Positions 3,654 to 63,999 of a DNA stretch of 64,000 nucleotides are shown in pieces. The notes below the pieces were generated by a model that saw only the letters and a list, made by a program, of their open reading frames with translations, searched no databases and was not told the DNA's origin. Source of the stretch: an uncultured Gammaproteobacteria bacterium. Its GTDB lineage: Bacteria; Patescibacteriota; Microgenomatia; CAZETR01; Amesbacteraceae. Position numbers and translations under genes: made by a program. How positions within the stretch are numbered: the first letter of the stretch is position 1; each line of letters opens with the position of its first letter. The stretch is from assembly GCA_964633995.1 (NCBI GenBank), contig CAZWKN010000002.1:113119-177118 (forward strand), in the 5' to 3' direction.

Positions 3654-4336
3654 GTGTGTTTTTTGACTGCAATCAAAAACCCAGCTAGCTCGGGTAATAG
3701 ATAAGTAATGGGGGTGAAGATATATTGACAGGCAAAATATATTGGAACTTGCCAACTAGATTTGGGCGGACCAATACGAAGTCCAAATCCATAAATTTTG
3801 TAACCATAGTTTGTAAAGTCGCTAACAGACCAGGCGGATACATGGCTGTCTGACGGTACAAACTCGGGCTGATGATGCAACATAGCATTTGGAGTAACGA
3901 TAATTGATATCCCTCTACAAACCCTGTCTAGGTCTGTTAAAAACTGCCGGCCGTCGATCTTGGATAAATGAGCTATCACCTCAATGGCCAGAAAAAGATC
4001 AACAGATCTAGAATTAAATGGTAAATGCTTTAAATCTCCAGTAACGTACTTGTCGTAAATATTATGTTTTTTGGCTATCTGAAGATATTCGGAGGAAATG
4101 TCCATACCAATAAGCTTTGAACCTGTAAGATCTCTAGTCGCTCTTAATAAATAACCATATATTCCTTTACCACAACCCCCTTCTACAATTGTTTTCCCTG
4201 CTAAATCATGAGGAATAAAATTAAAAACCAGGGGATGGTGAAAAAACATTGAAATACCCGCCCACTTGAATGATTTTTTTTGAGCCATCCGAATTATAAT
4301 ATCACAATGTGGGATTTTTTCTTTGATCCGCAGCAT
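3650..4336 (-). CDS. Class I SAM-dependent methyltransferase
   Basis: IVEGGCGKGIYGYLL (motif I), GMDISSEYL, LFLAIEVIAHL. The real start may be an internal Met (4288), since 4280..4336 overlaps the divergent plus-strand ORF. Confidence 0.8.
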   Translation of the reverse strand: MLRIKEKIPHCDIIIRMAQKKSFKWAGISMFFHHPLVFNFIPHDLAGKTIVEGGCGKGIYGYLLRATRDLTGSKLIGMDISSEYLQIAKKHNIYDKYVTGDLKHLPFNSRSVDLFLAIEVIAHLSKIDGRQFLTDLDRVCRGISIIVTPNAMLHHQPEFVPSDSHVSAWSVSDFTNYGYKIYGFGLRIGPPKSSWQVPIYFACQYIFTPITYLLPELAGFLIAVKKHT

Positions 4337-11315: not shown

Positions 11316-12351
11316 TGGTTTTCCAATTCAATTTTTGAAACGTATTTTTCCCTCGAAGAAAAAAGTCCACACAGACACTTCCCTGGTACACAGGCAAGAC
11401 ATTCAATTTTTTAGCCGTTTTTACTCTCCTGGAAAACATTGAAGGCAGTAACACCATAAAGTGAATATGACCAAACAGTAGGGCTAGTACATAATTAAAC
11501 TTGCCAGTAATTAGATAATAAAAATAAGTTACCAATTCAAGTGGAAGTCTTAACAAAAAGACTTTCCATAGGTCAGATGACGAAAGATTTTTTACAAGCA
11601 AGAGTAAATTATTTCGGTGCTCCCAAAGTCTTTTTTTTATCGGAGAATTTTTACTTGTTGCTGCTACTTTGTGATATACAACCGCAGAAGGTTCCGATAT
11701 TACACGAAAATTAGAATTTAAGACACGCCAGCAAAAATCAATTTCTTCCATGTAATTAAAAAATGTGTTATCAAAAAGTCCGCCCGTAACTTTTAGTAGA
11801 CTTTTCCTGAACATTAGAGCAGCACCACTGGCCCAAAATAAGTTTGTGCGCGTGTCATACTGGCCGACGTCCATCTCCTGGTTTTCAAATAATCTCCCCC
11901 TTGTAAACGGGTAACCTAATAAATCGATGAATCCCCCACAAGCACCCGCGTAATCAAACCTCGATTTGTCGTAATAATATTTAATTTTCGGCTGGACTAC
12001 CCCAATTGTTGAGTCCTGATCCAAAGCTTTGACCAGATTAACTATACAGTTTTTTACAAGCAGGGTATCGTTGTTTAGAAGTAATACATATTTTCCTTTG
12101 ACATGTGAGATAGCAGCGTTATTACCTCCGGTGAAGCCCAGATTTTTTTGGAATCTAAGAACTTTAATTTTGGCTTTAAATTGTTGCTGCAAGATCTTGG
12201 CTTCATTAACCAATGACCCATTGTCGCAAACGAGTATCTCAAGATGTGATAAATAGTTTTTTTGTGACTTTAATATCGAATTAACGCACTCTTTGGTATC
12301 ATTAAGACCATTGAAATTCAAAATTACTATTGAGGTAAGTATTTTGTTCAT
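11305..12351 (-). CDS. GT2 family glycosyltransferase with C-terminal TM helices
   Basis: SIVILNFNGLNDT...ILVCDNGS...VLLLNNDTLL (DxD). Confidence 0.8.
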   Translation of the reverse strand: MNKILTSIVILNFNGLNDTKECVNSILKSQKNYLSHLEILVCDNGSLVNEAKILQQQFKAKIKVLRFQKNLGFTGGNNAAISHVKGKYVLLLNNDTLLVKNCIVNLVKALDQDSTIGVVQPKIKYYYDKSRFDYAGACGGFIDLLGYPFTRGRLFENQEMDVGQYDTRTNLFWASGAALMFRKSLLKVTGGLFDNTFFNYMEEIDFCWRVLNSNFRVISEPSAVVYHKVAATSKNSPIKKRLWEHRNNLLLLVKNLSSSDLWKVFLLRLPLELVTYFYYLITGKFNYVLALLFGHIHFMVLLPSMFSRRVKTAKKLNVLPVYQGSVCVDFFLRGKNTFQKLNWKTNEK

Positions 12352-13727
12352 TGTCTCCAGTATAATTTGGCTGTTTGAAAAGATAAATCGGGAAGATAAT
12401 TATTTTTTTCTACAAACTCTGAAATCCAATCTGTATTTTCATATGTAACGATTACAGCCGGAGATTTAGAAAGACCTGATTTTAATTCTTCGAGTGCACC
12501 GGGAATTGGTAATCCAAACGTATTGGCGTATTTGGTGGTTGGACGCCTGTCTGAATAAAACAGTAGTTCAGGGTCATCGTACCACATAAAGACCTGGGCA
12601 TCTTGAGGCGTCATTTTTTTGATCTTTAATCCAATGGCTCTGCCATCGTAGGCATATTTTGTGGTTGGTCCGAACGTGTAAGTGTACGCTAGTGAAGGAG
12701 GACAAAAAAACAACCAACCCCACCGAAAAAAAATAAAGCACAAAGCTAAAACAATAATTTTTCTGGCACTGTAATATTGCCACAACCACGCCATAAGCAA
12801 GATACTTGATTGAATCATGGGGAAATAGTAGTGGGCAACATTTCTTGAAGTAATTTTTGCTCCTAAATAATAGGCCAAAAACCACATAACAAGTATCAAA
12901 AAGTTAGAGGTAATCTTGGTTTTTGAAAAAATAATTGCTACGACCGTCGAACCAATGAGTACTAAAGCCAACGGAGGCAGGGTGACTAACCAGGGTATTA
13001 ATCCGTGTTTAGTAATCGACTCGAAAATACCTGTTTCAACATAAAATTTATTAAACAAAACAACCTGATTAAAAAAGTCAGTCAGACCCCGAGTTTGTGC
13101 AAACCAATATATAACGCTAATTATCGGTACCAGGGTCCCAGTGGCAAAAAAAAGAAGAGTCCTAACTCGATCATGTTTGGTTTTGAAAAATAAGATAATG
13201 AAAATTAACAGCAAGTTCACAAAAGCCACGGGTTTAATCAGGAGCGAAAAACCTGAAAGAAGTCCTAAGAACATGGGCTTATGATTAAAGTTCTTGTCGA
13301 GTAACCAAAGTTCAGCTAGCAAAAACGTGGACATAAAAACTTCAGTATTGCTTAACTGGCCTTCCAGGAGAAAGGAATTAGCCAACAAAATGTAAATAGC
13401 AGTAAAGAGATTGGCAGTGTTTTTATTAGCTGAAAATTTAATGAGAAGTAGATATATTAACAGGCCAGAGACCACAGAATTGACAAAACCCAAAAGTCTT
13501 ACAGAAAATTCTGACGCCCCAGTAAATTGAAACATAGCCCAATAAAGCAATTGAATCCCCGGTGGTTTGTGTTCAAATAAATCACGGTAAAGGACAAAAT
13601 CGGCATGAAAAAGTCGGGATGCGGCAAAAGCATACATGCCCTCGTCCCTATTTAGAGGCAAAGTCCAGGTTTGCCACCGCAGAACAAACGTCGCTAGAAG
13701 AAGTATTGTAATAATCCATTTGTTCAT
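12348..13727 (-). CDS. GT-C fold membrane glycosyltransferase, ArnT/PMT-like (GT83/GT39-type)
   Basis: Polytopic; first-loop acidic motif LNRDEGMYAFAASRL, typical of polyprenyl-phosphate-sugar-dependent GT-C enzymes. Confidence 0.65.
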   Translation of the reverse strand: MNKWIITILLLATFVLRWQTWTLPLNRDEGMYAFAASRLFHADFVLYRDLFEHKPPGIQLLYWAMFQFTGASEFSVRLLGFVNSVVSGLLIYLLLIKFSANKNTANLFTAIYILLANSFLLEGQLSNTEVFMSTFLLAELWLLDKNFNHKPMFLGLLSGFSLLIKPVAFVNLLLIFIILFFKTKHDRVRTLLFFATGTLVPIISVIYWFAQTRGLTDFFNQVVLFNKFYVETGIFESITKHGLIPWLVTLPPLALVLIGSTVVAIIFSKTKITSNFLILVMWFLAYYLGAKITSRNVAHYYFPMIQSSILLMAWLWQYYSARKIIVLALCFIFFRWGWLFFCPPSLAYTYTFGPTTKYAYDGRAIGLKIKKMTPQDAQVFMWYDDPELLFYSDRRPTTKYANTFGLPIPGALEELKSGLSKSPAVIVTYENTDWISEFVEKNNYLPDLSFQTAKLYWRQ

Positions 13728-13732
13728 TAAAT

Positions 13733-14452
13733 TTAGGAAAGTTCGTCCCAGTATTTGAAAATTTCTTTAAAGATCATTAGGGGTACTTTGGGATGGACGA
13801 AGGCAAATATTTTACTTCTTTTCCCAATTTCGTAGATAGTCTTGCCCTTGGTCCTAGGAAAATGTCGCACACCAACCTGTCCTATCGTAAAGCCCTGTTT
13901 CTGAGCTTTTAGCAAAACCTCTGCGTCAATTAAGCCAGTTTCGCATTTTAAATCTAGGTTTTTAAATATTGTTCTTTTATATAGCTTAAAAGAACAATCA
14001 ATATCCTTAACTCGCAAACCAAGTAACAGGCTAATAATAATATTGTATGCATGAGAAACTAATATTCTCATTAAGGGGTCGTTGTGGTTAATCCTATAGC
14101 CTGCGACTATGTCGTAATGCTTGATCAATGGGATAAGTTTAGTTAAATCATGAATATCAAACTGCCCATCGGAGTCAGTATAAAAAATTAGCTCTCCCCG
14201 AGCGGAGCTAAAACCGGACCTCAATGTGGCCCCATATCCTTTATTAACTTCGTGGGTAACCAATCTAAGATTTGGTACATGCTTGATTAAACTACTAACC
14301 ACTTTTCCTGTTTTATCGAGACTCCCATCATTGACTACAATAATTTCATAGGAAGAAAAATTTTTGGCAAGAAACTTGTTGATTGAGTTAACAACAGGGC
14401 GAATGTTTTCTTCTTCATTATATGCAGGTAGCACCACCGATATCTTTTTCAT
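13733..14452 (-). CDS. Polyprenyl-phosphate glycosyltransferase (DPM1/ArnC/GtrB-like GT2)
   Basis: ISVVLPAYNEEENI...YEIIVVNDGSLDKTGKV...VNKGYGATLRSGF...IFYTDSDGQFD, the short soluble GT2 architecture of dolichyl/undecaprenyl-phosphate sugar synthases. Confidence 0.85.
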   Translation of the reverse strand: MKKISVVLPAYNEEENIRPVVNSINKFLAKNFSSYEIIVVNDGSLDKTGKVVSSLIKHVPNLRLVTHEVNKGYGATLRSGFSSARGELIFYTDSDGQFDIHDLTKLIPLIKHYDIVAGYRINHNDPLMRILVSHAYNIIISLLLGLRVKDIDCSFKLYKRTIFKNLDLKCETGLIDAEVLLKAQKQGFTIGQVGVRHFPRTKGKTIYEIGKRSKIFAFVHPKVPLMIFKEIFKYWDELS

Positions 14453-14457: not shown

Positions 14458-15297
14458 CTACTTTTGAGCCTCTATGAATATACCTACTGTAGGAGTAGAC
14501 AAAGAAAATTCTCTGTCGTTGTAGCCATCAATATACTTGATGAAGTTTAATAATTGTTGATACCAATTATCGGGCTTGGTTTCACTAGTAAATTTGTTCA
14601 GGGTTGTGGTAATTGTTTTTGGAAAAAGCTTTGATTTACGGATGTTGTAACCAATATTAAGTAAAAAATGATTGAATGGTATACCCCTATTAGTTATGAC
14701 CTTTATTTTGTTGACTGTCAGGCCAGCGCTTTCTACCGCTGAGACGAGACTTTGAGGAGTATAAAGTCTAATATGCTGATTCCAAACTCCTGCCCAAAAA
14801 CCATTTTTGAAGTGAAAATTAAATAAATGCTCTAATAACCAATTAACCGGATCCCACAATAATGGATAGTTGTGGCTTGGGACGGTTATTGCGATTTTTC
14901 CACCCTTTTTTATAATGCGCTTAAACTCTTTTAAGCCTGCTACATCGTCGGGGAGATGTTCCAAAACCTCACTACAGATAACTTTGTCGAACGATCCAGC
15001 CTTAAATGGCATTTTGGTTACATCGCCTTCAACCAATTTAAGTTTGTTTGATCTGACGTAATTTTTAGCTAAAGCCAATGCCTTGGGATTGTCATCTAGA
15101 CCAACCAGCTTAGCTTTTGACAGGTTTGACAAAAGATGAAGGTAAAAACCGTCACCGCAACCAGCATCTAGCACAACTTCGTTCGGCTTGGGATCAAGTG
15201 ACAAAACTATTTCTTTTGCCCGTCGCTTCAAACACATGTCTCCCGTGTTGAAAAGTAATTTATCAAGCAGTTTTTTGTCCAACATAGATCGAATCAT
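14458..15297 (-). CDS. Class I SAM-dependent methyltransferase
   Basis: VLDAGCGDGFYLHLL (motif I), LVGLDDNP, VICSEVLEHL, GGKIAITVP. Confidence 0.85.
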   Translation of the reverse strand: MIRSMLDKKLLDKLLFNTGDMCLKRRAKEIVLSLDPKPNEVVLDAGCGDGFYLHLLSNLSKAKLVGLDDNPKALALAKNYVRSNKLKLVEGDVTKMPFKAGSFDKVICSEVLEHLPDDVAGLKEFKRIIKKGGKIAITVPSHNYPLLWDPVNWLLEHLFNFHFKNGFWAGVWNQHIRLYTPQSLVSAVESAGLTVNKIKVITNRGIPFNHFLLNIGYNIRKSKLFPKTITTTLNKFTSETKPDNWYQQLLNFIKYIDGYNDREFSLSTPTVGIFIEAQK

Positions 15298-18569: not shown

Positions 18570-19348
18570 ATTGATGATGGAAGGGTTTTGTTTAACACAC
18601 TAAGAACTAGTGCATCAAAACCAATTAAGAGTTCTTTCGGTGGATTGGGTGACTGGAGCACCTGTAATAGTTTTAAAGACACGTTGTCTGGGGTTGTCAT
18701 AGGTAATAATAGTCTCAAAAGTGGAATTTTTGACCTTGCAGACTTAGGTGGCTCGGGAATATTGGGATTGCTAATTGCACCCGGCAATATGCAAGTTACG
18801 TGAACATTCCTTGGAGATAACTCAAAATATTGAGCTTCTACTAGCGCGCGAAGCGCATGTTTGGACGCAGAATAAATACTGTAATTTGGGAAACTTATTA
18901 GTCCACTTAATGATGAAACCGCTATTAAATGACCAGAATTTTTCGTTAGCATTGGTAAACACAAATTAGCAATCCGTAAATAGCCGATGGTATTTAGGTC
19001 TAACGTCTTTGCAAGGTCGGAGGGAAGAGCTGCTGAGCTTAAACCTGACGGGCTTATACCAACAAGGTAAATTAGAGCATCCAAACCGATTGTGGATTTC
19101 AATAATTCTCCCACGGCAGCCTGACATGACTTGTCTGAGGTGACATCAATTTGAACTGGTACGACGAACTTTTCAGCCTGAATTCGAGTTGAATCGTAAC
19201 CTGCGTACACCATGTAACCTTGACTAACTAATAAGTGGGTTAGGCTGGTCCCCAGCCTAGAAGATGCCCCAACTATAAATACTTTTTTGATCATGCTAAA
19301 TATTTTACAACGAATTGACCTCCCAAATTTGGGAATTTGAGTTTTCAA
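18527..19348 (-). CDS. Short-chain dehydrogenase/reductase (SDR) family oxidoreductase
   Basis: Probable start M19 (19294): MIKKVFIVGASSRLG (Rossmann TGxxxG-type); YSASKHAL (YxxxK catalytic motif). Confidence 0.8.
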   Translation of the reverse strand: MKTQIPKFGRSIRCKIFSMIKKVFIVGASSRLGTSLTHLLVSQGYMVYAGYDSTRIQAEKFVVPVQIDVTSDKSCQAAVGELLKSTIGLDALIYLVGISPSGLSSAALPSDLAKTLDLNTIGYLRIANLCLPMLTKNSGHLIAVSSLSGLISFPNYSIYSASKHALRALVEAQYFELSPRNVHVTCILPGAISNPNIPEPPKSARSKIPLLRLLLPMTTPDNVSLKLLQVLQSPNPPKELLIGFDALVLSVLNKTLPSSIWNYLQKVVWQKQQ

Positions 19349-21116: not shown

Positions 21117-21929
21117 TCAGGGAGTGTTTACTTTAAAGTTTAGTTCTGGATCGAAACGCCATTTCCTTCTGTTGGTATCCGAATAATAATTTAGAAATCT
21201 TAATCGATAAAATACCGCAAATGTGTCTATTAACATCTGGTATACGAAATAAATAAATTTTTTACTGGTAACGGTAGACGCTTTGCCAAAATCGAGTTTC
21301 AATTCAATCGGTGCTTCGTAAATTCTTTTAAAACCTAAGTAATGTGCAACTGCTAATATTTCTATATCAAATGCAAACTCTTTGATAATCAGCCTGGGCA
21401 ATACTTCCTCCAAAACCTGTCTTCGGTAACATTTTAAGCCTGCTTGAGTGTCCCTTATGTTTAAACCAAAGAGAATCTTTACAAGCAGGGAATACACGGT
21501 TGACACTACTTTTCTCTGCCATGGATAGATAACTTTTGAGGCAGGATGACGCTTTGACCCAACGACAATATCTGCGTTGTACCACTCAAAGTGCTCTAGA
21601 ATCATTGAAAGTCCGTTTGGATTGATATCCATACCAGAATCAATAAAGGCAATAATGTCTCCCTTGGATCTGGCCATGCCGTATCGGACAGCATGACCCT
21701 TTCCCCTATTAGTTTCATAGCCCACTACTTTGATGTCTTTAAACCTTTTTGCTAGAGGGAGAGCCTTGTCGTAGGTTTTGTCACTTTTTCCATCAACTAC
21801 ACAAATGATCTCCGACGGGTATCTAAGTTTCTGAAGGACGGCACGAAGGCGTAGTAGTTCACGCCGAATAGTTGCTTCCTGTTTATAGGCAGGTACTATG
21901 ACTGAGAGCAGTCTTACGGCTGAAGTCAT
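21117..21929 (-). CDS. Polyprenyl-phosphate glycosyltransferase (DPM1/GtrB-like GT2)
   Basis: LSVIVPAYKQEATI...IICVVDGKSDKT...NRGKGHAVRYGM...IAFIDSGMD. Confidence 0.8.
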   Translation of the reverse strand: MTSAVRLLSVIVPAYKQEATIRRELLRLRAVLQKLRYPSEIICVVDGKSDKTYDKALPLAKRFKDIKVVGYETNRGKGHAVRYGMARSKGDIIAFIDSGMDINPNGLSMILEHFEWYNADIVVGSKRHPASKVIYPWQRKVVSTVYSLLVKILFGLNIRDTQAGLKCYRRQVLEEVLPRLIIKEFAFDIEILAVAHYLGFKRIYEAPIELKLDFGKASTVTSKKFIYFVYQMLIDTFAVFYRLRFLNYYSDTNRRKWRFDPELNFKVNTP

Positions 21930-23041
21930 GCCACCCAGTAACCATTCGCAAATAAACCCAAGAATACCAGCATAGCCATGATATTACACAAAAAATAAAA
22001 AATTAAAAGTTTTGAACTCAGTTTTGATAAAAAAAGTCCCAAAAGGATAAAGGAGGGAAAACAAGTTAATGCGTATCTGGGCAATGAAGTGAGCGTTCCC
22101 GTAAGCGTGGGCGTAAGTAGACATAAAAAATTGAATATTGAATAGGATGGCCTTTGTTTTAGGAGTGAAATAACTGCTAGTGCAATAAATTCAACCCCAA
22201 CAAAAGCTTCAAGTAGGATAGTGGGGTACATTGGAATAGATTTGTCGACCGTAAGAATCATTTTTACATACCTCCAAATTACTTGATAAGGAAGAACTAT
22301 TTTTTCGCTACGAGACTGGCCAAATAATTTTTGAGCATGAACGAAAGCCAAATAATCTCCTGTGGTTTTATGTAAAAACAACATATATGAAATAAGCCCA
22401 AGAGGGACAAGAACTACCCCAACCAAACTTAAAAGAGAGGCCTTGCTCTCTGATCGCCTTCCAAGCCATTCTAGAAAAAGCGCTGGAAATATAAATATCC
22501 CCACTAGCCTGGTGTTAGCGGCCAGTGCTCCCAAAACACCCGCTAATAACCATTTATTCTTTCTGGAAAAATAAAAACTAGAGACGGTCAAAAGAAAAAA
22601 GACACCCTCGGTATAAACTGAGGTGAAAAAGAAACTTACCGGAAAAGCTAACAAAGCAAGTATGGTTAGATTGATTACTTTTGGGCCATAATCCATTCGA
22701 AGAAGTTTGTTAAAAACAAGTAAACCCACAAAAAAACTTAGTGTCGATATCCACGTACCAGTCAATATTCTATCTTTGAAAATTGGGGCGAATAAATTAA
22801 TTAAACGGGGATAAAGAGGGAAAAAAGCGTGTTGGGCATATCCATAGCCACTAGCAGCAATTGCTAGATAGAGATTGCCGTCAAAGTTCGCTCTAAAGTT
22901 AACAAGTGGATTTGATAAGTAAGTCTGGGTTGCCCCACCAAGATATTGGGTTGTTCGCGGTATGAACTGCCCTGTTAGCGCAACTATACTTACAATTAAC
23001 ACCTCCCACACAGCCACGAAAAATAAAAGTTTTTTAATCAT
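21926..23041 (-). CDS. Polytopic membrane protein, GT-C-like (DUF2029/GT87/PIG-V-like mannosyltransferase type)
   Basis: About 10 TM helices. Immediately downstream of a polyprenyl-P sugar synthase with a 4-nt overlap. Confidence 0.5.
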   Translation of the reverse strand: MIKKLLFFVAVWEVLIVSIVALTGQFIPRTTQYLGGATQTYLSNPLVNFRANFDGNLYLAIAASGYGYAQHAFFPLYPRLINLFAPIFKDRILTGTWISTLSFFVGLLVFNKLLRMDYGPKVINLTILALLAFPVSFFFTSVYTEGVFFLLTVSSFYFSRKNKWLLAGVLGALAANTRLVGIFIFPALFLEWLGRRSESKASLLSLVGVVLVPLGLISYMLFLHKTTGDYLAFVHAQKLFGQSRSEKIVLPYQVIWRYVKMILTVDKSIPMYPTILLEAFVGVEFIALAVISLLKQRPSYSIFNFLCLLTPTLTGTLTSLPRYALTCFPSFILLGLFLSKLSSKLLIFYFLCNIMAMLVFLGLFANGYWVA

Positions 23042-52309: not shown

Positions 52310-53855
52310 ATTGCGCTAGGTTTATGGCCACAGGCATCAGTTTGGGAATGTAAACGTAAGAGATGTGGTTGGTAGTCAGAAAGTTATTAACCTGATTGGG
52401 ATATGTGCCTGAAAAGAAATCTACGATCTGGAGATGGCGTGATTTCCAGTCGTAGCCAGTTATATTTAAGTTTACTTCATCGGCTAAATATGTTTGTTGT
52501 CCAGAATAAGCGGAAATATAGCCAGTAGATTCATATAAATAAAGTGGCCTGGGAGGAGAATGTTCAAACTTGCTACTTAAGCTCTTGTCAAACACTGGTG
52601 TAAGTACAACACCTTGAGGAAGTCTGCCAAGAAAAGTTAGGGCGGACAACTCCTGTGACGAAATTTTCGCCGGCGGTCTTTTCGGTAGGTAGTGCCTTAA
52701 AGTGCCAAGCGTAGTGGGAATAGTTAACAATACAATCATTAGACATAAGAGTTTATTTGGCCGCAAACTTGCAAATGATATTCCGGCCAACAAACCAAGT
52801 GCAAATTGTGAATAATAAAAAAACTGGATAGTATTCCAGGCTGTGCCGGACTGGGTAAACAACATTGGAATAAACAGGCCAACAACTACAACTGTGATCA
52901 AAAAAATTTGTAGTGCATCCAGTTTTTTTGGGGCCTTAACTAACCCTATTAACCGTGTTCCAAAATTACCCAAGGTAAAAATTAACAAGGCAAGTGAAAA
53001 GGCAGGAATGCCTTTTAGGAGATTAGTGCTAATTCTGTAAGTGTTCAGAGCCGAAAAAAACTTAGGACTATTTAACCGATCGGGGCCCATCATGGTTTCT
53101 AAAAACCAAAGCGGCTGAAAGTGCAGTAGTTTTACTGAAGATGAATTCAATGGCATAAATAATCCGAGTGAAATTATCACTGACGGCAGTAATACTTTGA
53201 GCCATTTTTTATTTTTTAGGCTGCCTAATGCCAACCCGGCAAAACTTAATAGGCCGATGTATATTTTGATTTCCGGTAAAATTGAAAACACTAAAATAGC
53301 CGATAGAAAGCGATTTTTGTGCAATAGTATAAGTCCTAATAATAATAGAGCTAGTGAGAATGCGTAGGGGGGGTTTATGAGTGTAGAGATAGATTGTTGG
53401 GCCCAAAAAACAGACTCCCCTGCCCCCATGACCCATCCAAGGCTTCCTCCAAAATAAACAAAAAATAATGTCCATAAGGCTGCCAACTTCGACTTTTGCC
53501 AACTAAGTATGAAAAAGTAGGCAAGTAATCCGATTAAGGCAGATATTAAAACTGGAAAGATTTGAAAGTATAAGATGGTAACCGGAAGCTTGGTTATAAG
53601 GTGGATGAATGTCACCAATAAATCAAATCCCAGATGGTAATTTTTTATGGCTTCTCCTGCAAATATTGGCATGTCCAAAGAGCCCCTAGAAAGACTCTGG
53701 ATAAGCGATATGTGCCAAATACCGTCGTGCCCATTTGGACCCCAAAAACCCAAGCCATACGAGTAGGTTAGGCCATTTTTAACCATGGTCACCAGCCATG
53801 TTATGGAACCGATAAGGATGACTAGCCAGTGTTTATTTTTTTTGACGAAAGGCAT
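52245..53855 (-). CDS. Polytopic membrane protein (536 aa) directly downstream of the Wzx flippase; possible polymerase/ligase-like or GT-C enzyme
   Basis: About 12 TM helices with a ~130-aa C-terminal soluble domain. No family motif recognised; the context call comes from adjacency to wzx. Confidence 0.4.
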   Translation of the reverse strand: MPFVKKNKHWLVILIGSITWLVTMVKNGLTYSYGLGFWGPNGHDGIWHISLIQSLSRGSLDMPIFAGEAIKNYHLGFDLLVTFIHLITKLPVTILYFQIFPVLISALIGLLAYFFILSWQKSKLAALWTLFFVYFGGSLGWVMGAGESVFWAQQSISTLINPPYAFSLALLLLGLILLHKNRFLSAILVFSILPEIKIYIGLLSFAGLALGSLKNKKWLKVLLPSVIISLGLFMPLNSSSVKLLHFQPLWFLETMMGPDRLNSPKFFSALNTYRISTNLLKGIPAFSLALLIFTLGNFGTRLIGLVKAPKKLDALQIFLITVVVVGLFIPMLFTQSGTAWNTIQFFYYSQFALGLLAGISFASLRPNKLLCLMIVLLTIPTTLGTLRHYLPKRPPAKISSQELSALTFLGRLPQGVVLTPVFDKSLSSKFEHSPPRPLYLYESTGYISAYSGQQTYLADEVNLNITGYDWKSRHLQIVDFFSGTYPNQVNNFLTTNHISYVYIPKLMPVAINLAQFNLSKVYSDSETEIWKVPQKE

Positions 53856-55311
53856 GTGACATTTTTGTTAAGTCAATTAACAATTGAGGTCCTGTTAAGC
53901 CGTATAGCGCAGCCAAAAAGACCACGCCAGAAATTAACACGTTGAGAATTAAGGTCGGCCAGGAAGACGGCAGGATAGTTTTTAAACCTATGGTTATCAA
54001 AAGCATTGCGACAGTGGCAAGTAAAGGCTTGAGGATACTTTGGGAAAATTGAAACCCAGTAATTTTTTGAACAATTACGATAGGAATAATTGAAAATACT
54101 GAAATAATCGCGGTGGCATACGCCACTCCCAAATAGCCAAATTTGTGGGCCAAAACCGGAGTTAGTCCCCAGGCTAAGGCTAACCACATAAGCATCAATG
54201 CGGTGTTTATCTTTACTTTGCCGAGGGAATTTAACGTATTTGAAAGTGGAGTTGAGATACTTGCCCAGGCAGTGTTAATGCAAAACAAGGTTAGGGGAAA
54301 CAACGCATCCTGCCATTTTGAATATTTGGGAATCAGGCGAACCACTTCCGGAGCCAGTATCGCCAATCCTGCTGTAAAAGGAAAAGTTGCAGCGGAAATA
54401 AAAAATAGGGTTTTTTCAAGACTTTTTTTCAGATCATTCGGATGGTTTTGCATACGAGAAAACGTAGGAAAAGTGACTTTGGTAACATTGTCCATAACTA
54501 GTCTTAAGGGCTGTTCTGAATAGTTTCTGGCCCAACTAATGATTCCCACTCCCTCGGTGCCAATAATTTTCCAGACAACTAATTCTATAAACCTATCCTT
54601 GACTACGGCTATAAACGTATTGAGTTGGTATGGCAAACCGAACTTTAACAAATTGTTTAGCGACGATTTTGAGAGCGAAAAGCCAATTGGCCAGGGCGAA
54701 AGAAAATAGATCAGAGCGGTGCCAACGATCCCCCGTAACATCACTGCCCAGGCATAGGCATATATTCCATCGCCCCTCCAGGCAAAAAAGACTGCTACAA
54801 ACCAATAAACGATATTTTCTACCACTTCTACCGCAGCTAAGTTTTTAAATAGCAGATGTCTTTCCAAAATTACAGAGGGGATTGTCTTGAGAGAAGCCAG
54901 AAAAAAAGCAAGCAGTAAGCTATTGAATAAGAAAACACCACCAGCTGGAAACTGGTAATACCGGGCGAGACCGGGAGCCAGAAGAAACATGACTATACAT
55001 CCGGAAATAACTAATATCTGCTGAAGGGTGAAGGTTGTCCGGAGATCTGATACCGTAGGACTGTCTTTTTTTTGAACCAGTGATGCCGCCAAGCCAACGT
55101 CTGAGAAATAACCCAATATTATTACCAGATTGTTAATTGCGGCAAATAGTCCGAATTCGTACCTTTTAAGATAAAAGGACAGAAGAGAAATGCCAATTAG
55201 ACTGATAACGCGGATAACAAATGTCCGACTGATTAAAGTGACTATGCCGGAGAGGGTTCTGGATTTGACGGTGAGTAGATCTATTTCTCCAGCGACCGGT
55301 TCGGAGTCCAT
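53833..55311 (-). CDS. wzx: Wzx-type oligosaccharide flippase (MOP superfamily polysaccharide biosynthesis protein)
   Basis: 492 aa with about 14 TM helices; N-terminus RTLSGIVTLISRTFVIRVISLIGISLL...GLFAA...GYFSDVGLAASLVQKKD, typical of PF01943/PF13440 flippases. Confidence 0.8.
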   Translation of the reverse strand: MDSEPVAGEIDLLTVKSRTLSGIVTLISRTFVIRVISLIGISLLSFYLKRYEFGLFAAINNLVIILGYFSDVGLAASLVQKKDSPTVSDLRTTFTLQQILVISGCIVMFLLAPGLARYYQFPAGGVFLFNSLLLAFFLASLKTIPSVILERHLLFKNLAAVEVVENIVYWFVAVFFAWRGDGIYAYAWAVMLRGIVGTALIYFLSPWPIGFSLSKSSLNNLLKFGLPYQLNTFIAVVKDRFIELVVWKIIGTEGVGIISWARNYSEQPLRLVMDNVTKVTFPTFSRMQNHPNDLKKSLEKTLFFISAATFPFTAGLAILAPEVVRLIPKYSKWQDALFPLTLFCINTAWASISTPLSNTLNSLGKVKINTALMLMWLALAWGLTPVLAHKFGYLGVAYATAIISVFSIIPIVIVQKITGFQFSQSILKPLLATVAMLLITIGLKTILPSSWPTLILNVLISGVVFLAALYGLTGPQLLIDLTKMSHAFRQKK

Positions 55312-57569: not shown

Positions 57570-59204
57570 TTATATACGTTTAACTAAAAAATACACCAGA
57601 CACAAAACAGCCCCAAGTGAAACTAAGTTACTTAAAATCCGAATAGGTGTGTCGGTAAACCTGGCCACCAGATCGTGACTGCCCGGGGAAACTGTTAACT
57701 GCATACGACCAAGCAATTTGTCCGAAGTGTGATCAACTGTAACCTCTTTTCCATCTAACCATATTTTCCAACCGGGAAAATAAAACGTCTGAAGTTCGAT
57801 AGTGGTGGGTAGTGAATCAATGTTGACTCGATAATGTTGAAGATTGGACTTTTTGGAGATTCTAGTAAAGCTCCCTTGTCCAAAAATGTTTATGTCATCC
57901 CCTGCCTGATCAGGCGGAGGCAGTTTGGCTGATATGGGCAAATAATCGAAAATACTGGCAGTAATTAGAGCTTGCCAGGATTTGCCTGAAAACTTTTCTT
58001 GGTCAGTCATGGTGGGAAACCACTTGTCTGGATGGAAATAATTGGCGTTTAATAAGAGGAGAAGAGTTAAAGAGCAGGAGAGTATAAGTTTATTTTTTGT
58101 AAGTAAGGCAAAAGCTCCCGCAAGAAACGAAGCAGAAAAAGCTGCCAGAGTCATAAATCTCCAAGGAAATTGTAGGTATTGAATAGGCGGAATTAGTTTC
58201 CAAATAAATGTTGATTTCGAGTGGGCCATGAACAAGCTACCAAGAACACACATGGCAAGAAACAAGATCGTAAACTTGTGATCCTTGAGTTGTTTTACAA
58301 ACGGCAAAGAAACTAAGACAATAGTTGGGACAATCCAATGCAGAAAGCCTAAGGCGAAACTCATGCCATCTTTTGGCCCCAACAGAGATGGGCCATAGCC
58401 CCAGTTAATGTTAAAAAATAGTTGATTTAGATCCGCAAAGTGGGCTAGGTAGTTGAAATAGCCAACAACAATAGACTCGACGTGAGCAAACTTGGCTTCT
58501 AATAAAACTGGGATAGTAAAAAATGCGGCCAGGCATAGCGCTAAGACCGCAGAGAACGCTAAAGACACATATGTCGTAAAGCTGGACCTAAACCTTATAA
58601 GCCAAAACAGACACCAAATAATTAAAACCGGAGCAAAAATCATAAGCATGGGATTGTGAGACAGCATTAAACACGCGACCGACACTCCAACCCCCACAAT
58701 CCAATACCTCACCCCAGTTTTTATTAAACGATAGGTGGTCCAGAAGATAAGCGGGTAAAAGGCCATGGCCCAAAACTCGTTCATCGCCCCTCTGACATAA
58801 AAATCGACAGAATGATACGGAGCGTAGGTATAAAAGGCTGCTGAGATTAGTCCTCCGGTTCTACCCCAAAACTCTTTGCCCAATAAATACATATTTATTG
58901 CGCAGATGCCAAACCCCAATATCCCAACTAGTTTTACAATGTCGATATATTGTAGATTTAACAATCTGAATGGCTGACCAATTAGATAAGGCAAGGGAGG
59001 GTAATAATTAAACAGAGGATACCCGTACCCATAGCCCATATCCGGAACCCAACGGCAAGGAATTTGGTAGTCCTTAAAGCATTTGTCCAGTTGATATTGG
59101 CGCATTGATTGTAAGTCGTCGTGCATGGTGAAATATCCTGGTTGCATCAACCAGGATATTGCCGGTAAAATTAAAAGTAGGAGCCAAAAAAAATCTTTTT
59201 TCAT
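57570..59204 (-). CDS. 'PTPS-related/YfhO-like' polytopic membrane protein; paralog C of 3
   Basis: GYFTMHDDLQSMRQYQLDKCFKDYQIPCRWVPDMGYGYGYPLFNYYPPLPY. Confidence 0.45.
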   Translation of the reverse strand: MKKDFFWLLLLILPAISWLMQPGYFTMHDDLQSMRQYQLDKCFKDYQIPCRWVPDMGYGYGYPLFNYYPPLPYLIGQPFRLLNLQYIDIVKLVGILGFGICAINMYLLGKEFWGRTGGLISAAFYTYAPYHSVDFYVRGAMNEFWAMAFYPLIFWTTYRLIKTGVRYWIVGVGVSVACLMLSHNPMLMIFAPVLIIWCLFWLIRFRSSFTTYVSLAFSAVLALCLAAFFTIPVLLEAKFAHVESIVVGYFNYLAHFADLNQLFFNINWGYGPSLLGPKDGMSFALGFLHWIVPTIVLVSLPFVKQLKDHKFTILFLAMCVLGSLFMAHSKSTFIWKLIPPIQYLQFPWRFMTLAAFSASFLAGAFALLTKNKLILSCSLTLLLLLNANYFHPDKWFPTMTDQEKFSGKSWQALITASIFDYLPISAKLPPPDQAGDDINIFGQGSFTRISKKSNLQHYRVNIDSLPTTIELQTFYFPGWKIWLDGKEVTVDHTSDKLLGRMQLTVSPGSHDLVARFTDTPIRILSNLVSLGAVLCLVYFLVKRI

Positions 59205-60715
59205 TTGCCTGTGTTTAACTGGAAAAATAACAGATATTCTCTTTGGCCGATGGGAGACGTAGCTTTGGGATAACTTCCCAAGAGTTTGAGACCTAGGCTT
59301 TGGGGATCGGGAATGAAAAACCGGGTGGAATTTACAACGACAAACACCTGATTATCCTTTTGGGCGGTAATAAGTTTTTGGTCTATTGACGAAATTGAAG
59401 TCCCTATGCCGATTACCCGAACATTGGGCACGTCGTTTAAATATAATTGAAGAGCATTGAATGGGGTTCCAAAAAAACCCTCAGACCCTATAAGGACCGG
59501 GCCGGATTTTGCAAAGTTTCTCAACGAGTCGGCAACTTCTTTTAGTCCATATCCCGAGGTCCAGCCTTCCAAATACCCTTCCCGCTCTATTCTGGGCAAG
59601 GCCACAGAAGCAGGCTTTGAGATTAGTAGATAATCTATCCATATTGATGGCAGAATAAGCAAAAGGACCCCCACAAACACCAGTAAATGTTTCTGCGTTC
59701 TCTGACCTAGATGTTCCAATCCATGACTAATTAAAACGACAGCAAAGGGAACGGTGAAAAATATATACCTGGCGGTAAACGCTTTGGCAATCAACGACTG
59801 AGCAATGATTGGACACAGAAGCCAGAGTGAAGTTACACACCTGCTTTTCCAGTGAGAAAATCTGCCGCCCAACATTCCCCAGAAAAGAAACAACAGTCCG
59901 ACCGGTGTTACTAAATAAAAATAGAATTCGATGGAATCCTTAAGATGGGGAATCAGGGGATCCGATGGGTGTTTGAGTATATCCGAAAAACTAAAGACAT
60001 AATCTGCGTTGCGAAGTGCAATCATATGAAACTCTGGTCCAAGTCTTAGGATGTTGTACATACCAAAAGAAATGGTGAATGTCGCAAGAAACAAGAGACA
60101 AGAAACAAGAAAATTTTTCCAAGTTAATTTTGGCAAAAATATCAGAAGTGACGGTAAGAGGATAAGTGCAAACAATGCGGGCGATTTAGTAAGCCAAGCA
60201 AATCCAAAAGCGAAACCAGCTAGCATTGCGAAATCGAGACGCAGTTTACTAAACGAAATGTACATCAAATCAAAACCCCAAACCATGAACATGGCCAATA
60301 AACTATCTGCTAGTGCTAAACGGTTGAAAAAAACAGCAAACGGGATAACTGCCCACAATACGGAAGCCAGAAGTGTTAGCCGAGAATTTTTAAAAAGCAT
60401 TTGGGCCATGAGAGCGATACCCAATAGCGTGCCAATGCCAGACAAAGCCGAAAATGTTCTGGCGGCAACTAGCGGATCTGAAATTAATTTCAGAAACGGA
60501 ATAGTGGCCCACATGTACAACGGTTGTTTGCCGTCAGAGAGCGGCAAAAACCTGAGGGACGGCTCGACTCGCATGACTTGCGACCAGCGAATATAAATAG
60601 ATTCATCGGCAAAAATGGGGAAGGAGCCCAAGTTTGCAAACCTTAGTACTGTTGCCAACAGCAGGATTAAAAATCCAATAGTTAATACTTTTAAACTAGG
60701 TTTCATAAAACTCAA
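59201..60715 (-). CDS. GT-C fold membrane glycosyltransferase, ArnT/PMT-like (GT83/GT39-type)
   Basis: LGSFPIFADESIYIRWSQVM first-loop acidic motif; about 12 TM helices. Confidence 0.65.
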   Translation of the reverse strand: MSFMKPSLKVLTIGFLILLLATVLRFANLGSFPIFADESIYIRWSQVMRVEPSLRFLPLSDGKQPLYMWATIPFLKLISDPLVAARTFSALSGIGTLLGIALMAQMLFKNSRLTLLASVLWAVIPFAVFFNRLALADSLLAMFMVWGFDLMYISFSKLRLDFAMLAGFAFGFAWLTKSPALFALILLPSLLIFLPKLTWKNFLVSCLLFLATFTISFGMYNILRLGPEFHMIALRNADYVFSFSDILKHPSDPLIPHLKDSIEFYFYLVTPVGLLFLFWGMLGGRFSHWKSRCVTSLWLLCPIIAQSLIAKAFTARYIFFTVPFAVVLISHGLEHLGQRTQKHLLVFVGVLLLILPSIWIDYLLISKPASVALPRIEREGYLEGWTSGYGLKEVADSLRNFAKSGPVLIGSEGFFGTPFNALQLYLNDVPNVRVIGIGTSISSIDQKLITAQKDNQVFVVVNSTRFFIPDPQSLGLKLLGSYPKATSPIGQREYLLFFQLNTGK

Positions 60716-61260: not shown

Positions 61261-61617
61261 TTATTGAATATCTGTTTTTTTGATAATACTGGTAAGGATG
61301 TAGGTGAGTTCTTTAGATTCTTGAAGAAGAGCATCAAACTCTAGGTCGGTAAATTCTACTGCCTCTTTGAGACCGGCAATCCAGATGGAAAACTCCCTTA
61401 GTTCTTTGCGGGATGTTTTTAGACATTTGACAAAATCTTTTTTGCTCATGGCCTCACTGGCTTCACAATAATTTGCGCCAGCTGAACCCGAAGACGAGAC
61501 CAACTGGGGAATTAGGCGGGCTGTTAGTGGTGTAACTTTAATCTTCTTACAAAGCCTAATTGTTCGTAGGTGAAAACTTTTAAATCTTTCTTCAAGATTT
61601 TGGATTTTATTTTCCAT
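61261..61617 (-). CDS. Four-helix-bundle protein ('23S rRNA intervening-sequence protein' family, TIGR02436/PF05635-like)
   Basis: 118 aa; ...PQLVSSSGSAGANYCEASEAMSKKDFVKCLKTSRKELREFSIWI... matches the family hallmark (S-GANI-EG...S-KDF-..L.IA.GS..E). Confidence 0.65.
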   Translation of the reverse strand: MENKIQNLEERFKSFHLRTIRLCKKIKVTPLTARLIPQLVSSSGSAGANYCEASEAMSKKDFVKCLKTSRKELREFSIWIAGLKEAVEFTDLEFDALLQESKELTYILTSIIKKTDIQ

Positions 61618-62390
61618 TATTTTGCACTTTGCGTTTTTGATTTTTTGAGTTTTTCGTCATATCTACCAAGTATATCGTACAGGCGAATTTTAAAGGTGTC
61701 GATTGCCATCTGAAGAGGTTCTTTCCAAATATTAAGTCTGTCTGAATAATATTTGATCCAATCCACTGACACTTGATCTATCTTAAACCCATATTTTTTA
61801 GATAAAAAGAGGGCTTCGACATCAAACGCACCCATATATCCTCCAACCGTTTGTCCTTTGGGCAGACAGACCAAAAGATTGGTAAAAACTTTTTTTGCAG
61901 CTTGTGACGAAAAAGATTTAAACCCACACTGCGAATCCTTAATTCCAGGAATAGCGACAAGCTGGACCAAGGTCACAAATGCCAAACTACGGATTTTTCG
62001 AATTAAAGTGTCGTTTTGCGTTTGGGTGCGAACCCCAATTACGACATCTGCGCCCGATTTATGCGCGTCCAAAAATTTGGAAATTTGGCTCATGGGAGTC
62101 GACTGATCAAAGTCCGTGAACAAAACATACTCTCCGATAGCGGCCAATACACCGGCTGTCACAGCAGCCGCCTTTCCACCATGGGGTATTTGCATCACAC
62201 GAATGTTTTTTGCTTTTAGTTCAGACAAAAGGTTATAAGTGTCGTCTGTTGAACCGTCGTCGACAATAATCAATTCCCAAGAATATTTTTGATTTTTTAG
62301 ATAGGTCAGTGGTTCGTCTAAAACTCCATTTTTAAAATTTTCCGCCTCGTTGTAAGCTGGGATGACCACCGAAAGTAATGGTTGGGTCAT
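61617..62390 (-). CDS. Polyprenyl-phosphate glycosyltransferase (DPM1/GtrB-like GT2)
   Basis: LSVVIPAYNEAENF...ELIIVDDGSTDDT...HGGKAAAVTAG...VLFTDFDQSTP. Confidence 0.85.
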   Translation of the reverse strand: MTQPLLSVVIPAYNEAENFKNGVLDEPLTYLKNQKYSWELIIVDDGSTDDTYNLLSELKAKNIRVMQIPHGGKAAAVTAGVLAAIGEYVLFTDFDQSTPMSQISKFLDAHKSGADVVIGVRTQTQNDTLIRKIRSLAFVTLVQLVAIPGIKDSQCGFKSFSSQAAKKVFTNLLVCLPKGQTVGGYMGAFDVEALFLSKKYGFKIDQVSVDWIKYYSDRLNIWKEPLQMAIDTFKIRLYDILGRYDEKLKKSKTQSAK

Positions 62391-63136
62391 ACTTTATAAA
62401 CACCGGTAAGTGAGCGGAGGCGGACGAGGAAGAGACCTTTGAGACCGGCAATCATGTCTTTGGCAAACGAAACCCGACGCGATTCCTGATACCTCCAGGC
62501 AACTGGGATTTCGGCAATTTTGTAACCTAATTTGCGGCCCAAATAGAGCATTTCTACATCAAAACCCGGAGTAACCGCGGGGCCAGTTATTACCTGTGGC
62601 GGATTTAATTTGTTCATCATGGTAAAAATCTTTTGAACCGCCTCACTTGAAAAGGCCTTAAACCCACATTGAGTGTCATTAAATGGTAATCGAAGGATAA
62701 TTGCGCGGACAAGAACTTGTCCTAGGGCCAGAACCTGTCTAAACAGCGGCGCGCCTTCTCGCCCAGCCCTTGAGCCAATGACGATGCTGTACCCTTCTTT
62801 AAATTTCGGTAATAATTTGTCGAGCTCGCCGATTGGGGTAGCTTGGTCCATGTCTGTAAATAAAATAATTTTCCCGCGAGCTGCCAATGCTCCAGTAATC
62901 ACGGTCGCAGCCTTACCCATGTGAGGATTATCAATGACTCGAACTTCTGGTTTTTTCAAAGCAAATTCATGTAGAAGTTTGGAGGTAGCGTCGGTAGATC
63001 CGTCATTGACTAAAATTACTTCCCAGGTAAAGTCTTTTGTCTTTAAAAAATCTATGACCACATTAAGAGATCCACGCTGAAAATTGTCTTCCTCGTTGTA
63101 GGCCGGAATTATTATTGACAAATACGGGTCGGTCAT
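62387..63136 (-). CDS. Polyprenyl-phosphate glycosyltransferase (DPM1/GtrB-like GT2); tandem paralog
   Basis: Probable start M18: MTDPYLSIIIPAYNEEDNF...EVILVNDGSTDAT...HMGKAATVITG...ILFTDMDQATP. Confidence 0.85.
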   Translation of the reverse strand: MTDPYLSIIIPAYNEEDNFQRGSLNVVIDFLKTKDFTWEVILVNDGSTDATSKLLHEFALKKPEVRVIDNPHMGKAATVITGALAARGKIILFTDMDQATPIGELDKLLPKFKEGYSIVIGSRAGREGAPLFRQVLALGQVLVRAIILRLPFNDTQCGFKAFSSEAVQKIFTMMNKLNPPQVITGPAVTPGFDVEMLYLGRKLGYKIAEIPVAWRYQESRRVSFAKDMIAGLKGLFLVRLRSLTGVYKV

Positions 63137-63999
63137 TTTGTAAATCCAAACATGGGATCGGTAATGTTGGCATCTGGGCCAGAACAACTCAAATTCACGT
63201 CATTTTGATTATATCGTTTATAGTCGGGGTAGATCAAACCCAGAGCTCCAAACGACTTATCAATCTTGTCTACGAGGCTGTGGGGAAAGACTATGGAGTA
63301 CACGGGGCTGCTGCTACTGGGCTGGTTTACGTGCAATTTGGCAAGCCAGAAGAAATACCGGTAGCCTAAATTGTAACCGGGGTTGGTTATATACGACACA
63401 GAAACACATGGGTAGCCATGGATTCTGGCATCTGAAGAGATGAAAGATACTAGGGCTTTTTTTTCAATATATCCGTTATGGTTGATGTTGACATCAAGCA
63501 GGGCGCGTACATTGACGAAACAGTAGACGGCCAGAATGGCGTAGCCAGACAACTTAAGATTTGGCGATGATATCAGGAAATTGATGAACAATGCAGAAGC
63601 AGCTATCCATAGTACATTAAGACCATCTAAATAATATTCGGATAAATTTAGGGGTTGAAAATAAAAAAATACAAAGTATAGGAAAATCCAAACACCAAAC
63701 AACATTGGAGTATAACTCGGGAGTCGTTTTTTTAGCGTCAGAATGAGCACGGTGAGCAGGAATGTTCCGGGAACAATAAAGGGGTTAATTTTTTCATCTA
63801 AATTTGTGGCGATATTTCTATTGGCGTTTCTGTTGGCGTAAAGCACGATATGCCCAAGTTTTTGTATGAATGTTTGAGGCTTGGGCGTTACTTTCTTTGA
63901 GGTAAACATCGCCAAGGCCGATTTGGTCTGTGAAAAACCGTGACGGTATTCAAAGATAACAAGAGGCAACGACAAAACCAAAAACAAAAGTGCAGGCAA
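63133..63999 (-). CDS. Polytopic membrane protein, 5' end truncated by the window edge; probably another GT-C-type enzyme
   Basis: Hydrophobic segments throughout; upstream of the tandem polyprenyl-P sugar synthases with a 4-nt overlap. Confidence 0.45.
   Translation of the reverse strand: MPALLFLVLSLPLVIFEYRHGFSQTKSALAMFTSKKVTPKPQTFIQKLGHIVLYANRNANRNIATNLDEKINPFIVPGTFLLTVLILTLKKRLPSYTPMLFGVWIFLYFVFFYFQPLNLSEYYLDGLNVLWIAASALFINFLISSPNLKLSGYAILAVYCFVNVRALLDVNINHNGYIEKKALVSFISSDARIHGYPCVSVSYITNPGYNLGYRYFFWLAKLHVNQPSSSSPVYSIVFPHSLVDKIDKSFGALGLIYPDYKRYNQNDVNLSCSGPDANITDPMFGFTK

Follow-up and report, generated by a model that had tools for sequence, protein, structure and literature searches.

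The question raised by this locus is whether four small family 2 glycosyltransferases (GT2s) synthesize lipid-linked monosaccharides, and whether these sugars serve the polytopic glycosyltransferases of the GT-C type whose genes lie nearby. The locus is a stretch of 64 kb from an uncultured, Microgenomates-like bacterium (64,000 nucleotides; assembly GCA_964633995.1, contig CAZWKN010000002.1, positions 113,119 to 177,118 of the forward strand), which is called the window in the following and is nearly all taken up by one glycosylation island with a G+C content of ~40%. As judged from their sequences and gene contexts, the four enzymes, here termed G1 to G4, quite likely act at the cytoplasmic face of the membrane as polyprenyl-phosphate glycosyltransferases (Pren-P GTs) of the DPM1/DPMS, GtrB, and ArnC family, in which they represent three subfamilies, and supply the adjacent GT-Cs via flipped lipid-linked sugars. 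Their membership in this family, the identity of the partners as GT-Cs, a gene triplet around the orthologs of G2, and natural gene fusions in related genomes are established by sequence, phylogeny, predicted fold, and conserved linkage.

All four open reading frames (ORFs), which an initial annotation of the DNA had described as DPM1/GtrB-like GT2s, are confirmed as genes on the minus strand, the last two in tandem, and each of them covers the Glycos_transf_2 profile of Pfam (PF00535, 168 positions) from position 1 to positions 155-167:

13733..14452, minus strand: G1, 239 amino acids (aa), PF00535 at 6.5e-29, DSDGQ motif
21117..21929, minus strand: G2, 270 aa, PF00535 at 3e-24, DSGMD in place of DADLQ
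61617..62390, minus strand: G3, 257 aa, PF00535 at 2.4e-25, DFDQS motif
62387..63136, minus strand: G4, 249 aa, PF00535 at 3.6e-25, DMDQA motif

The tandem genes of G3 and G4 share a 4-bp ATGA overlap, and their products are 41% identical. Two start codons come into consideration for G4, an ATG at position 63136 (249 aa) and a TTG further upstream at 63187 (266 aa), the former of which is favored because of the orthologs and the ATGA overlap.

Among the GT2s encoded in the window, G1 to G4 are mutual best matches over ~200 aa with identities of 26-41%, while the other 11 align to them only over the N-terminal nucleotide-binding portion of ~100 residues. When the sequences of solved structures are searched, the best matches of all four are ArnC, the DPMS of P. 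furiosus (PfDPMS), and GtrB, with E values of 1e-13 to 6e-18, and these are the only three structurally characterized Pren-P GTs. G1 is matched best by ArnC (6e-18) and PfDPMS (6e-14), G2 by PfDPMS, GtrB, and ArnC, G3 by PfDPMS, ArnC, and GtrB, and G4 by GtrB (2.6e-16). Among the NCBIfam models, the four find their strongest or near-strongest matches in ArnC, DPhHxTase (dolichyl-phosphate hexose transferase), PgfS, which is the best match of G4, and PpgS, and it is these matches that extend clearly beyond the N-terminal ~100 aa; the other 11 GT2s find their best matches in rhamnosyltransferase, MftF-like, PgaC, or SunS-like models.

The phylogenetic placement was carried out as a neighbor-joining tree with score-based distances, which comprises the 15 GT2s of the window, orthologs, ArnC and GtrB/YfdH from E. 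coli, and PfDPMS. The four enzymes fall with the references: G1 to G4, their orthologs, ArnC, GtrB/YfdH, and PfDPMS form one clade apart from the other 11 GT2s (199 of 200 bootstraps), as obtained with a small and thinly sampled reference set that includes neither GpgS nor any other characterized GT2. A clustering with processive or polysaccharide synthase GT2s, which the initial annotation had named as the contrary outcome, is not observed, and none of the four carries the membrane domains of such enzymes. The same annotation had proposed up to four different lipid-linked sugars; the four synthases fall into three subfamilies, represented by G1, by G2, and by G3 together with G4, each of which is recovered in 200 of 200 bootstraps.

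The predicted folds agree with this placement. AlphaFold models of G1 and G2 (pLDDT values of 91.9 and 89.1, respectively) are both GT-A-like, and Foldseek searches return exclusively ArnC, DPMS, or GtrB as the top 24 matches of the G1 model (TM-score up to 0.81) and as the top 20 matches of the G2 model (TM-score up to 0.70). The best of these fold alignments extend over ~237-250 columns and include nearly all of G1 and most of G2, up to the C-terminal helix; those to PfDPMS comprise 249-250 columns for both models. Helices are predicted at the expected juxtamembrane sites, at residues 127-144 and 222-238 of G1 and at residues 137-154 and 223-245 of G2. These putative juxtamembrane helices are hydrophobic and rich in aromatic residues, and their hydrophobic-moment values are not distinctive.

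The active site can be compared with that of ArnC, for which a structural study has proposed the first Asp of the DxDxQ motif (DADLQ) as the base, the second Asp and the Gln as metal ligands (D96 and Q98 in GtrB), and R128, R137, and R205 as the basic residues that hold the acceptor phosphate (bioRxiv 10.1101/2025.01.29.634835). In the alignment, the equivalent of the first Asp (D100 in ArnC) is invariant throughout. G1 contains the equivalents of D100, D102, Q104, R128, R137, and R205 altogether, with DSDGQ as a canonical motif, and G3 (DFDQS) and G4 (DMDQA) retain the DxD part with the Gln moved by one position. As seen from the alignment alone, the equivalent of R137 is also invariant, and that of R128 is an Arg in G1, G3, and G4 and a Lys followed by an Arg in G2.

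The genes considered as users of the lipid-linked sugars are the following:

12348..13727, minus strand: GT-C of the PMT_2 type, 459 aa, PMT_2 at 42 bits against a cut-off of 26.1
21926..23041, minus strand: PIG-V/Gpi18-like GT-C, 371 aa, homologs match PF04188, 8 hydrophobic segments
59201..60715, minus strand: GT-C of the PMT_2/PMT type, 504 aa, PMT_2 at 35.1 bits and PMT at 34.2 bits, both above the cut-offs
63133..63999, minus strand: GT-C of the PMT_2 type, C-terminal 288 aa of a gene cut by the end of the window, full-length homolog matches PMT_2

The GT-C nature of 12348 and 59201, as claimed in the initial annotation, is evident from their PMT_2 matches, while 21926 and 63133 are not callable from the window sequence alone and need their homologs. 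The hydrophobic segments range from 6 to 9 in 12348 and 59201, with at least 6 in the former, and an acidic motif follows right after the first transmembrane (TM) helix in both of them (RDEG in 12348, ADES in 59201). Although 21926 has no Pfam match of its own, 27 of 29 homologs with 41-54% identity match PF04188 (Mannosyl_trans2, PIG-V/Gpi18; best E value 1.5e-11). Likewise, the 63133 fragment lacks a Pfam match, and its N-terminus is presumed from that of a homolog of 498 aa (locus L078:13621-15117; phmmer 2e-69), which matches PMT_2 with 39.3 bits at residues 76-224 and holds the same place upstream of a G4 ortholog; the L-numbers used here denote loci with homologs in other genomes or metagenomes. 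Searches of the solved structures in the Protein Data Bank with 12348, 59201, and 21926 as single sequences and with a profile of the 21926 family gave no match.

Three of the four synthase genes directly abut a GT-C-like gene. G1 stops 5 bp ahead of the start of 12348-13727, which lies downstream of it, and the stop codons of 21926-23041 and of 63133-63999 overlap the starts of G2 and G4, respectively, by 4 bp each, the former as ATGA. Such ATGA overlaps are found at three junctions and are compatible with translational coupling. The claim of the initial annotation that each synthase lies directly beside a GT-C gene thus holds for G1 with 12348, G2 with 21926, and G4 with 63133, and it fails for G3, which adjoins only G4 and is separated from 59201-60715 by two small ORFs. 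One of these (61261-61617, 118 aa) resembles the small proteins with a four-helix bundle that frequently occur as insertions, and the other (60756-61337, 193 aa) is a YdjM-like membrane ORF (weak, E value 2e-4); together they break an otherwise conserved linkage of G4 and 59201.

The clearest neighborhood is that of G2, whose orthologs were surveyed in 80 metagenomic loci (L093-L171 among them). A flippase gene of the MOP/Polysacc_synt type directly precedes the G2 ortholog in 63 of 72 loci and is confirmed by Pfam in 30 of the 32 sampled, and a homolog of the PIG-V-like 21926 is present at position -1 or -2 in 27 of 45 loci. The full triplet of PIG-V-like GT-C, MOP flippase, and GT2 is found in 24 of 45 loci, and it has the layout of the three-component systems described for extracytoplasmic glycosylation (PMC11127046; PMC8035078). 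The window lacks the flippase gene, as do L005, L086, and L096, and the gene of the GT-C there overlaps or abuts that of G2. Another gene found in this context (19305-21113) starts 3 bp downstream of G2 and codes for a protein of 602 aa with a signal-peptide-like N-terminus and no Pfam match; an ortholog (1e-207) occupies the same position in L005, and in 13 of 71 metagenomic loci a homolog directly follows the G2 ortholog.

A comparable conservation is seen for the G3/G4 subfamily. In L065, L069, and L078, homologs of 63133 and/or 59201 border G4 orthologs of 47-55% identity: the G4-type gene is directly followed by a 59201 homolog in L065 and lies between homologs of 63133 and 59201 in L078, and in L069 a G3-type gene is followed by one other membrane gene and then by homologs of both. 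Orthologs of 59201 (E values from 7e-73 to 6e-106, and 4e-50 for a partial one) follow those of G3/G4 in L065, L067, L069, and L078, either directly or after a few genes, and a G4/G3 tandem precedes a YfhO-like protein of 1061 aa in L068. The comparison of gene neighborhoods across other genomes, which had been suggested as a check with the initial annotation, thus reveals a conserved GT-C linkage for the orthologs of G2 and of G3/G4 and a variable partner for those of G1.

Relatives of G1 are encoded next to a polytopic membrane protein in 33 of 72 loci from many phyla, as compared to 21% expected from the same loci (p = 2e-6), and the enrichment persists when the loci are collapsed at 70% and 60% identity (18 of 44 and 16 of 39, respectively; p about 0.002-0.003). 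These neighbors were identified by bulk Pfam searches, single-sequence phmmer searches from the GT-Cs of the window having detected almost none of them. Among the 38 polytopic neighbors scanned, 15 match PMT_2, 7 PMT (overlapping with the former), 2 GT87, and one each TMEM260-like, YfhO, and GtrII models, and 8 contain an MprF-type flippase-like domain (LPG_synthase_TM) rather than a GT-C. Neighbors of the latter type occur in other phyla, namely in L014, L018, L026, L034, L038, L046, L054, and further loci. Even among close G1 orthologs the partner varies, with a PMT_2 protein in L090, a membrane protein of 771 aa without Pfam match in L089, and proteins with a weak resemblance to PMT and YfhO in L002 and L003. 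The G1 ortholog of L005 is present only as a fragment of 151 aa, and the ortholog of 12348 (2e-63) is part of the same cluster there without adjoining G1. Downstream of the G1 orthologs in L090 (5723-9584) and L091 (5745-10626) follow genes for an epimerase, a HAD phosphatase, a nucleotidyltransferase, a GHMP kinase, and a SIS isomerase, a set reminiscent of a GDP-heptose pathway and a possible clue to the sugar of the G1 subfamily; no such set flanks G1 in the window.

A direct connection between synthase and GT-C is apparent in several related genomes. A GT2 related to G1 (~42% identity) and a PMT_2-type GT-C are encoded by separate, adjacent, and overlapping genes in L065, L074, and L078, and the orthologous pair is a single ORF of 724-742 aa in L067 (7995-10184), L068 (7914-10142), and L069 (7992-10166). 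These fusions argue for a functional and probably also physical coupling of the two enzymes. The GT-C part of the fusions has a distant homolog in the window (48010-49371; 22-28% identity), which lies beside none of the four synthases.

The enzymatic activity, the lipid, the sugars and acceptors, the flippase used in this genome, and the mode of anchoring to a GT-C can be inferred from these data as follows. At the cytoplasmic face of the membrane, each synthase would use a nucleotide sugar to charge a polyprenyl monophosphate, which is probably undecaprenyl phosphate, with a single sugar residue, and the lipid-linked sugar would then be flipped across the membrane, for which the MOP-family protein is the candidate in the relatives of G2. 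On the outside, the neighboring GT-Cs of the PMT_2 type (12348, 59201, and 63133) and the PIG-V-like 21926 would use the lipid-linked sugar as donor and glycosylate a surface acceptor, which may be a protein, a wall polymer, or a lipid. Since G1 to G4 contain no TM helices, their association with the membrane would have to be brought about by the juxtamembrane helices and/or by a partner protein, and the natural fusions in relatives suggest that this partner may be the GT-C itself. The sole flippase candidate encoded in the window adjoins none of the four synthases and may only by inference be assigned this role here:

53833..55311, minus strand: MOP/Wzx-type flippase, Polysacc_synt_3 at 2.9e-49

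Several observations weigh against assigning G1 to G4 to the Pren-P GTs and coupling them to the adjacent GT-Cs. Their scores with the NCBIfam models are all far under the equivalog cut-offs, and the equivalent of R205 of ArnC is alignable only in the G1 clade. All four lack the TM domain that is present in every solved Pren-P GT (two TM helices in GtrB and ArnC, four in PfDPMS): they end at the onset of the TM hairpin in ArnC and GtrB, are 60-90 residues shorter, and contain no TM-like hydrophobic segment outside the region of the juxtamembrane helices. The missing anchor is not disqualifying, because many Dpm1 proteins depend on a separate membrane subunit; as described in PMC7728079, Dpm3 anchors many of these catalytic subunits, and the C-terminal TM domain of the protein itself does so in yeast. 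G2 deviates further in its DSGMD motif, in which Gly and Asp stand at the positions of the second Asp and the Gln, respectively, so that the metal-binding pair of DADLQ is lost and the putative base is retained. This variant is not confined to the window, as the G2 family comprises 5737 homologs (E<=1e-10), of which the best 120 show 65-75% identity, and the pattern D-[AS]-G-x-[DE] is present in 120 of 120 G2 homologs among those listed (P0241-P0360). The next-best fold matches of G2 are soluble glucosyl-3-phosphoglycerate synthases (GpgS) with E values of ~1e-11 and a TM-score of ~0.65. Because of the DxGxD variant and of GpgS structures with similar TM-scores, G2 is the least secure of the four as a Pren-P GT on intrinsic evidence.

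The arguments from gene order have their weak points as well. When the gene order of the window is shuffled, at least three synthase/GT-C adjacencies are expected with P = 0.57, and the in-window adjacency was consequently rejected as evidence of pairing; it is uninformative by itself because 22 of the 54 genes are GT-C-like. The enrichment of polytopic neighbors by G1 relatives is lost in single-linkage clusters at 50% identity, and the partner differs among these relatives and is missing in some, e.g., in L091 and L020. Regarding the flippase step, no GtrA/SMR-type flippase gene is present among the ORFs of the window, nor is there a detectable member of the MOP flippase subfamily linked to G2, 53833 belonging to another one. 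What remains above chance is that the four synthases form a distinct subfamily and that their linkage is conserved in other genomes. The pairing of donor synthase and user proposed in the initial annotation is supported by the conserved neighborhoods, the triplet, and the fusions elsewhere, while its original basis, the adjacency within the window, does not carry it; the earlier interpretation is partly supported, on grounds other than that adjacency.

The same data have to be weighed under other explanations. If G1 to G4 were ordinary cytoplasmic GT2s which extend a lipid-linked oligosaccharide or polymer and lie beside GT-Cs only through the crowding of the island, the chance level of adjacency and the family scores below the curated cut-offs would be expected, as would the company of 11 other GT2 and four GT4 genes that are clearly glycan-building. 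This is very unlikely in view of their separation from those 11 GT2s at 199 of 200 bootstraps, the matches specific for ArnC, DPMS, and GtrB in sequence and fold, which extend over nearly the full length of G1 and G2, and the GT-C/flippase linkage and fusions conserved in other genomes. It also appears quite improbable that G2, and possibly others, are soluble GpgS/MpgS-like enzymes acting on a small phosphorylated metabolite, or non-catalytic subunits. The absence of a TM helix, the replacement of DxDxQ by DxGxD across the whole family, and the rank of the GpgS structures as next-best in the fold search speak for such a function, but ArnC, DPMS, and GtrB rank first by both sequence and fold, the first Asp as proposed base and the Arg/Lys pair are retained, and the family is conserved at 65-75% identity. 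Moreover, a triplet with a GT-C and a MOP flippase in most loci makes no sense for an enzyme of compatible-solute synthesis.

An explanation that would affect only the number of sugars is that G3 and G4 are the subunits of one hetero-oligomeric synthase or are redundant, which would leave fewer than four lipid-linked sugars in the island. It is suggested by their nature as tandem paralogs of 41% identity with an ATGA overlap, by the tetrameric state of the solved ArnC and GtrB (bioRxiv 10.1101/2025.01.29.634835), and by the single G3/G4-type gene of most relatives (L065, L067, L069, L074, and L078), the tandem being found only in L068. Yet an identity of 41% leaves ample room for a change in donor specificity, and the paralogs have separate orthologs (sub-clades within the G3 plus G4 clade, 200 of 200 bootstraps), so this reading may be entertained as a possibility, if a somewhat doubtful one. 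Reaching beyond the reading of G1 to G4 as Pren-P GTs that supply adjacent GT-Cs, each synthase might dock on its own GT-C (and MOP flippase) as a dedicated machine that makes, flips, and transfers the sugar without a common pool, with the G2 family (DxGxD motif, PIG-V-like partner) forming a mechanistically distinct branch of the Pren-P GTs responsible for a core glycoconjugate in the envelope of Microgenomates. Such machines are foreshadowed by the related genomes in which GT2 and PMT_2 are fused in a single chain and by the gene pairs joined through ATGA overlaps, but the proposal as a whole is speculative and rather unlikely.

The island around the four synthases is devoted almost wholly to glycosylation: in addition to 15 genes of the GT2 and four of the GT4 type, it contains the Wzx/MOP-type flippase gene and genes for a carbamoyltransferase, a short-chain dehydrogenase, and several methyltransferases. 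The GT-C-like proteins or candidates among the polytopic membrane proteins (41% of the called genes) span positions 4280-63999, with dense stretches at, for example, 23816-31751 and 45078-52309. Of these 22 proteins, 11 match PMT_2, PMT, PTPS_related/YfhO or (weakly) AftD models, and ten are without any Pfam match; at E<=5, Pfam gives no match for 21926, 63133, or eight other membrane ORFs. The 22 proteins are grouped into four paralog families and nine singletons: the largest family consists of six PMT_2 members with an N[WA]DE motif (23816, 25431, 27014, 30138, 34494, and 46415), three PTPS_related/YfhO paralogs follow (28552, 50642, and 57570), and there are two further GT-C-like pairs. Genes for a carbamoyltransferase, four S-adenosylmethionine-dependent methyltransferases, and an S-adenosylhomocysteine hydrolase (37780-39465, 607-2631, 3650-4336, 8564-9358, 14458-15297, and 55327-56619) suggest that the glycans of the island are carbamoylated and methylated. 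The genes studied have their closest homologs in bacteria of the Candidate Phyla Radiation (CPR) of the Microgenomates type, namely Amesbacteria, Levybacteria, Daviesbacteria, and Collierbacteria. One of the loci, L005 (CAZIVL010000001.1, 508 kb), is syntenic with the window over more than 10 genes (21926, 21117, 19305, 16426, 18527, 17532, 15263, 14458, 13733, 9348, and 12348) and carries the contig label "uncultured Gammaproteobacteria"; its bin is probably mislabeled.

G1 to G4 are best regarded as new members of the Pren-P GTs in three-component systems, whose special traits are the lack of a TM anchor, the combination of several synthases with an exceptional number of GT-Cs, and the DxGxD motif in the G2 family. 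The three-component logic is already textbook knowledge, and the finding extends known biology without overturning any of it. The literature searched holds no description of such a system in CPR bacteria, which is no proof of novelty, and searches on GT-C expansions or O-mannosyltransferases in CPR/Patescibacteria returned nothing relevant. The cell envelope of these largely uncultured organisms is almost unknown, and the four donor synthases may serve as small, soluble-like, and expressible entry points to their lipid-linked sugars and the GT-Cs that use them. The G2 triplet with its DxGxD motif and the fusions of synthase and GT-C offer testable hypotheses on how the synthesis of lipid-linked sugars is coupled to their consumers.

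Among the known systems, O-antigen glucosylation by GtrA/GtrB/GtrC (yfdG-yfdH-yfdI of CPS-53 in E. coli) likewise relies on neighboring genes for a GT2-type Pren-P sugar synthase, a flippase, and a GT-C (PMC11127046), and GtrB is the best match of G4 among the solved structures. GtrB differs by its two C-terminal TM helices and its tetrameric state from the TM-less G1 to G4, and the island studied here contains no small flippase of the GtrA type, several synthases, and about 22 GT-C-like genes. The ArnC/ArnT/ArnEF system, which modifies lipid A via undecaprenyl-phosphate-Ara4FN, includes in ArnC the closest solved relative of G1 by both sequence and fold, with conserved catalytic Asp and Arg residues, and in ArnT a GT-C of the PMT_2 clan encoded in the operon of ArnC. 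In contrast to G1, ArnC is an integral membrane protein, ArnA, ArnB, and ArnD are absent from the window, and the source organism is presumably a Gram-positive-type CPR bacterium without lipid A.

With respect to DPM1/DPMS and its users, the pair of G2 and 21926 mirrors DPM1 and PIG-V, and G1 or G4 with their PMT_2 partners mirror DPM1 and PMT. The reliance of many Dpm1 proteins on a separate membrane anchor subunit, as stated in PMC7728079, resembles the anchor-less state of G1 to G4, whereas no Dpm2/Dpm3-like subunit is seen here and G2 carries DxGxD instead of DADLQ. A synthase of the lipid-linked donor is combined with a flippase, either small or of the MATE/MOP type, and with a GT-C also in the Citrobacter O1/O2 system with its MATE/MOP flippase and GT136 GT-C (PMC11127046) and in the Gram-positive CsbB/GtcA/YfhO systems (PMC8035078), in which glycosylation takes place after polymerization and outside of the membrane. 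The MOP flippase of the G2-family triplet and the YfhO/PTPS_related paralogs of the window fit to these systems, while the donor synthase of Citrobacter is a phosphoribosyltransferase rather than a GT2 and the flippase of the G2 triplet is missing in the window. Finally, mycobacterial Ppm1 provides the example of a TM-less Pren-P GT domain that needs a polytopic protein either fused or adjacent to it. Its partner is an Lnt-like acyltransferase domain, whereas the fused partner in the relatives described here is a PMT_2-type GT-C.

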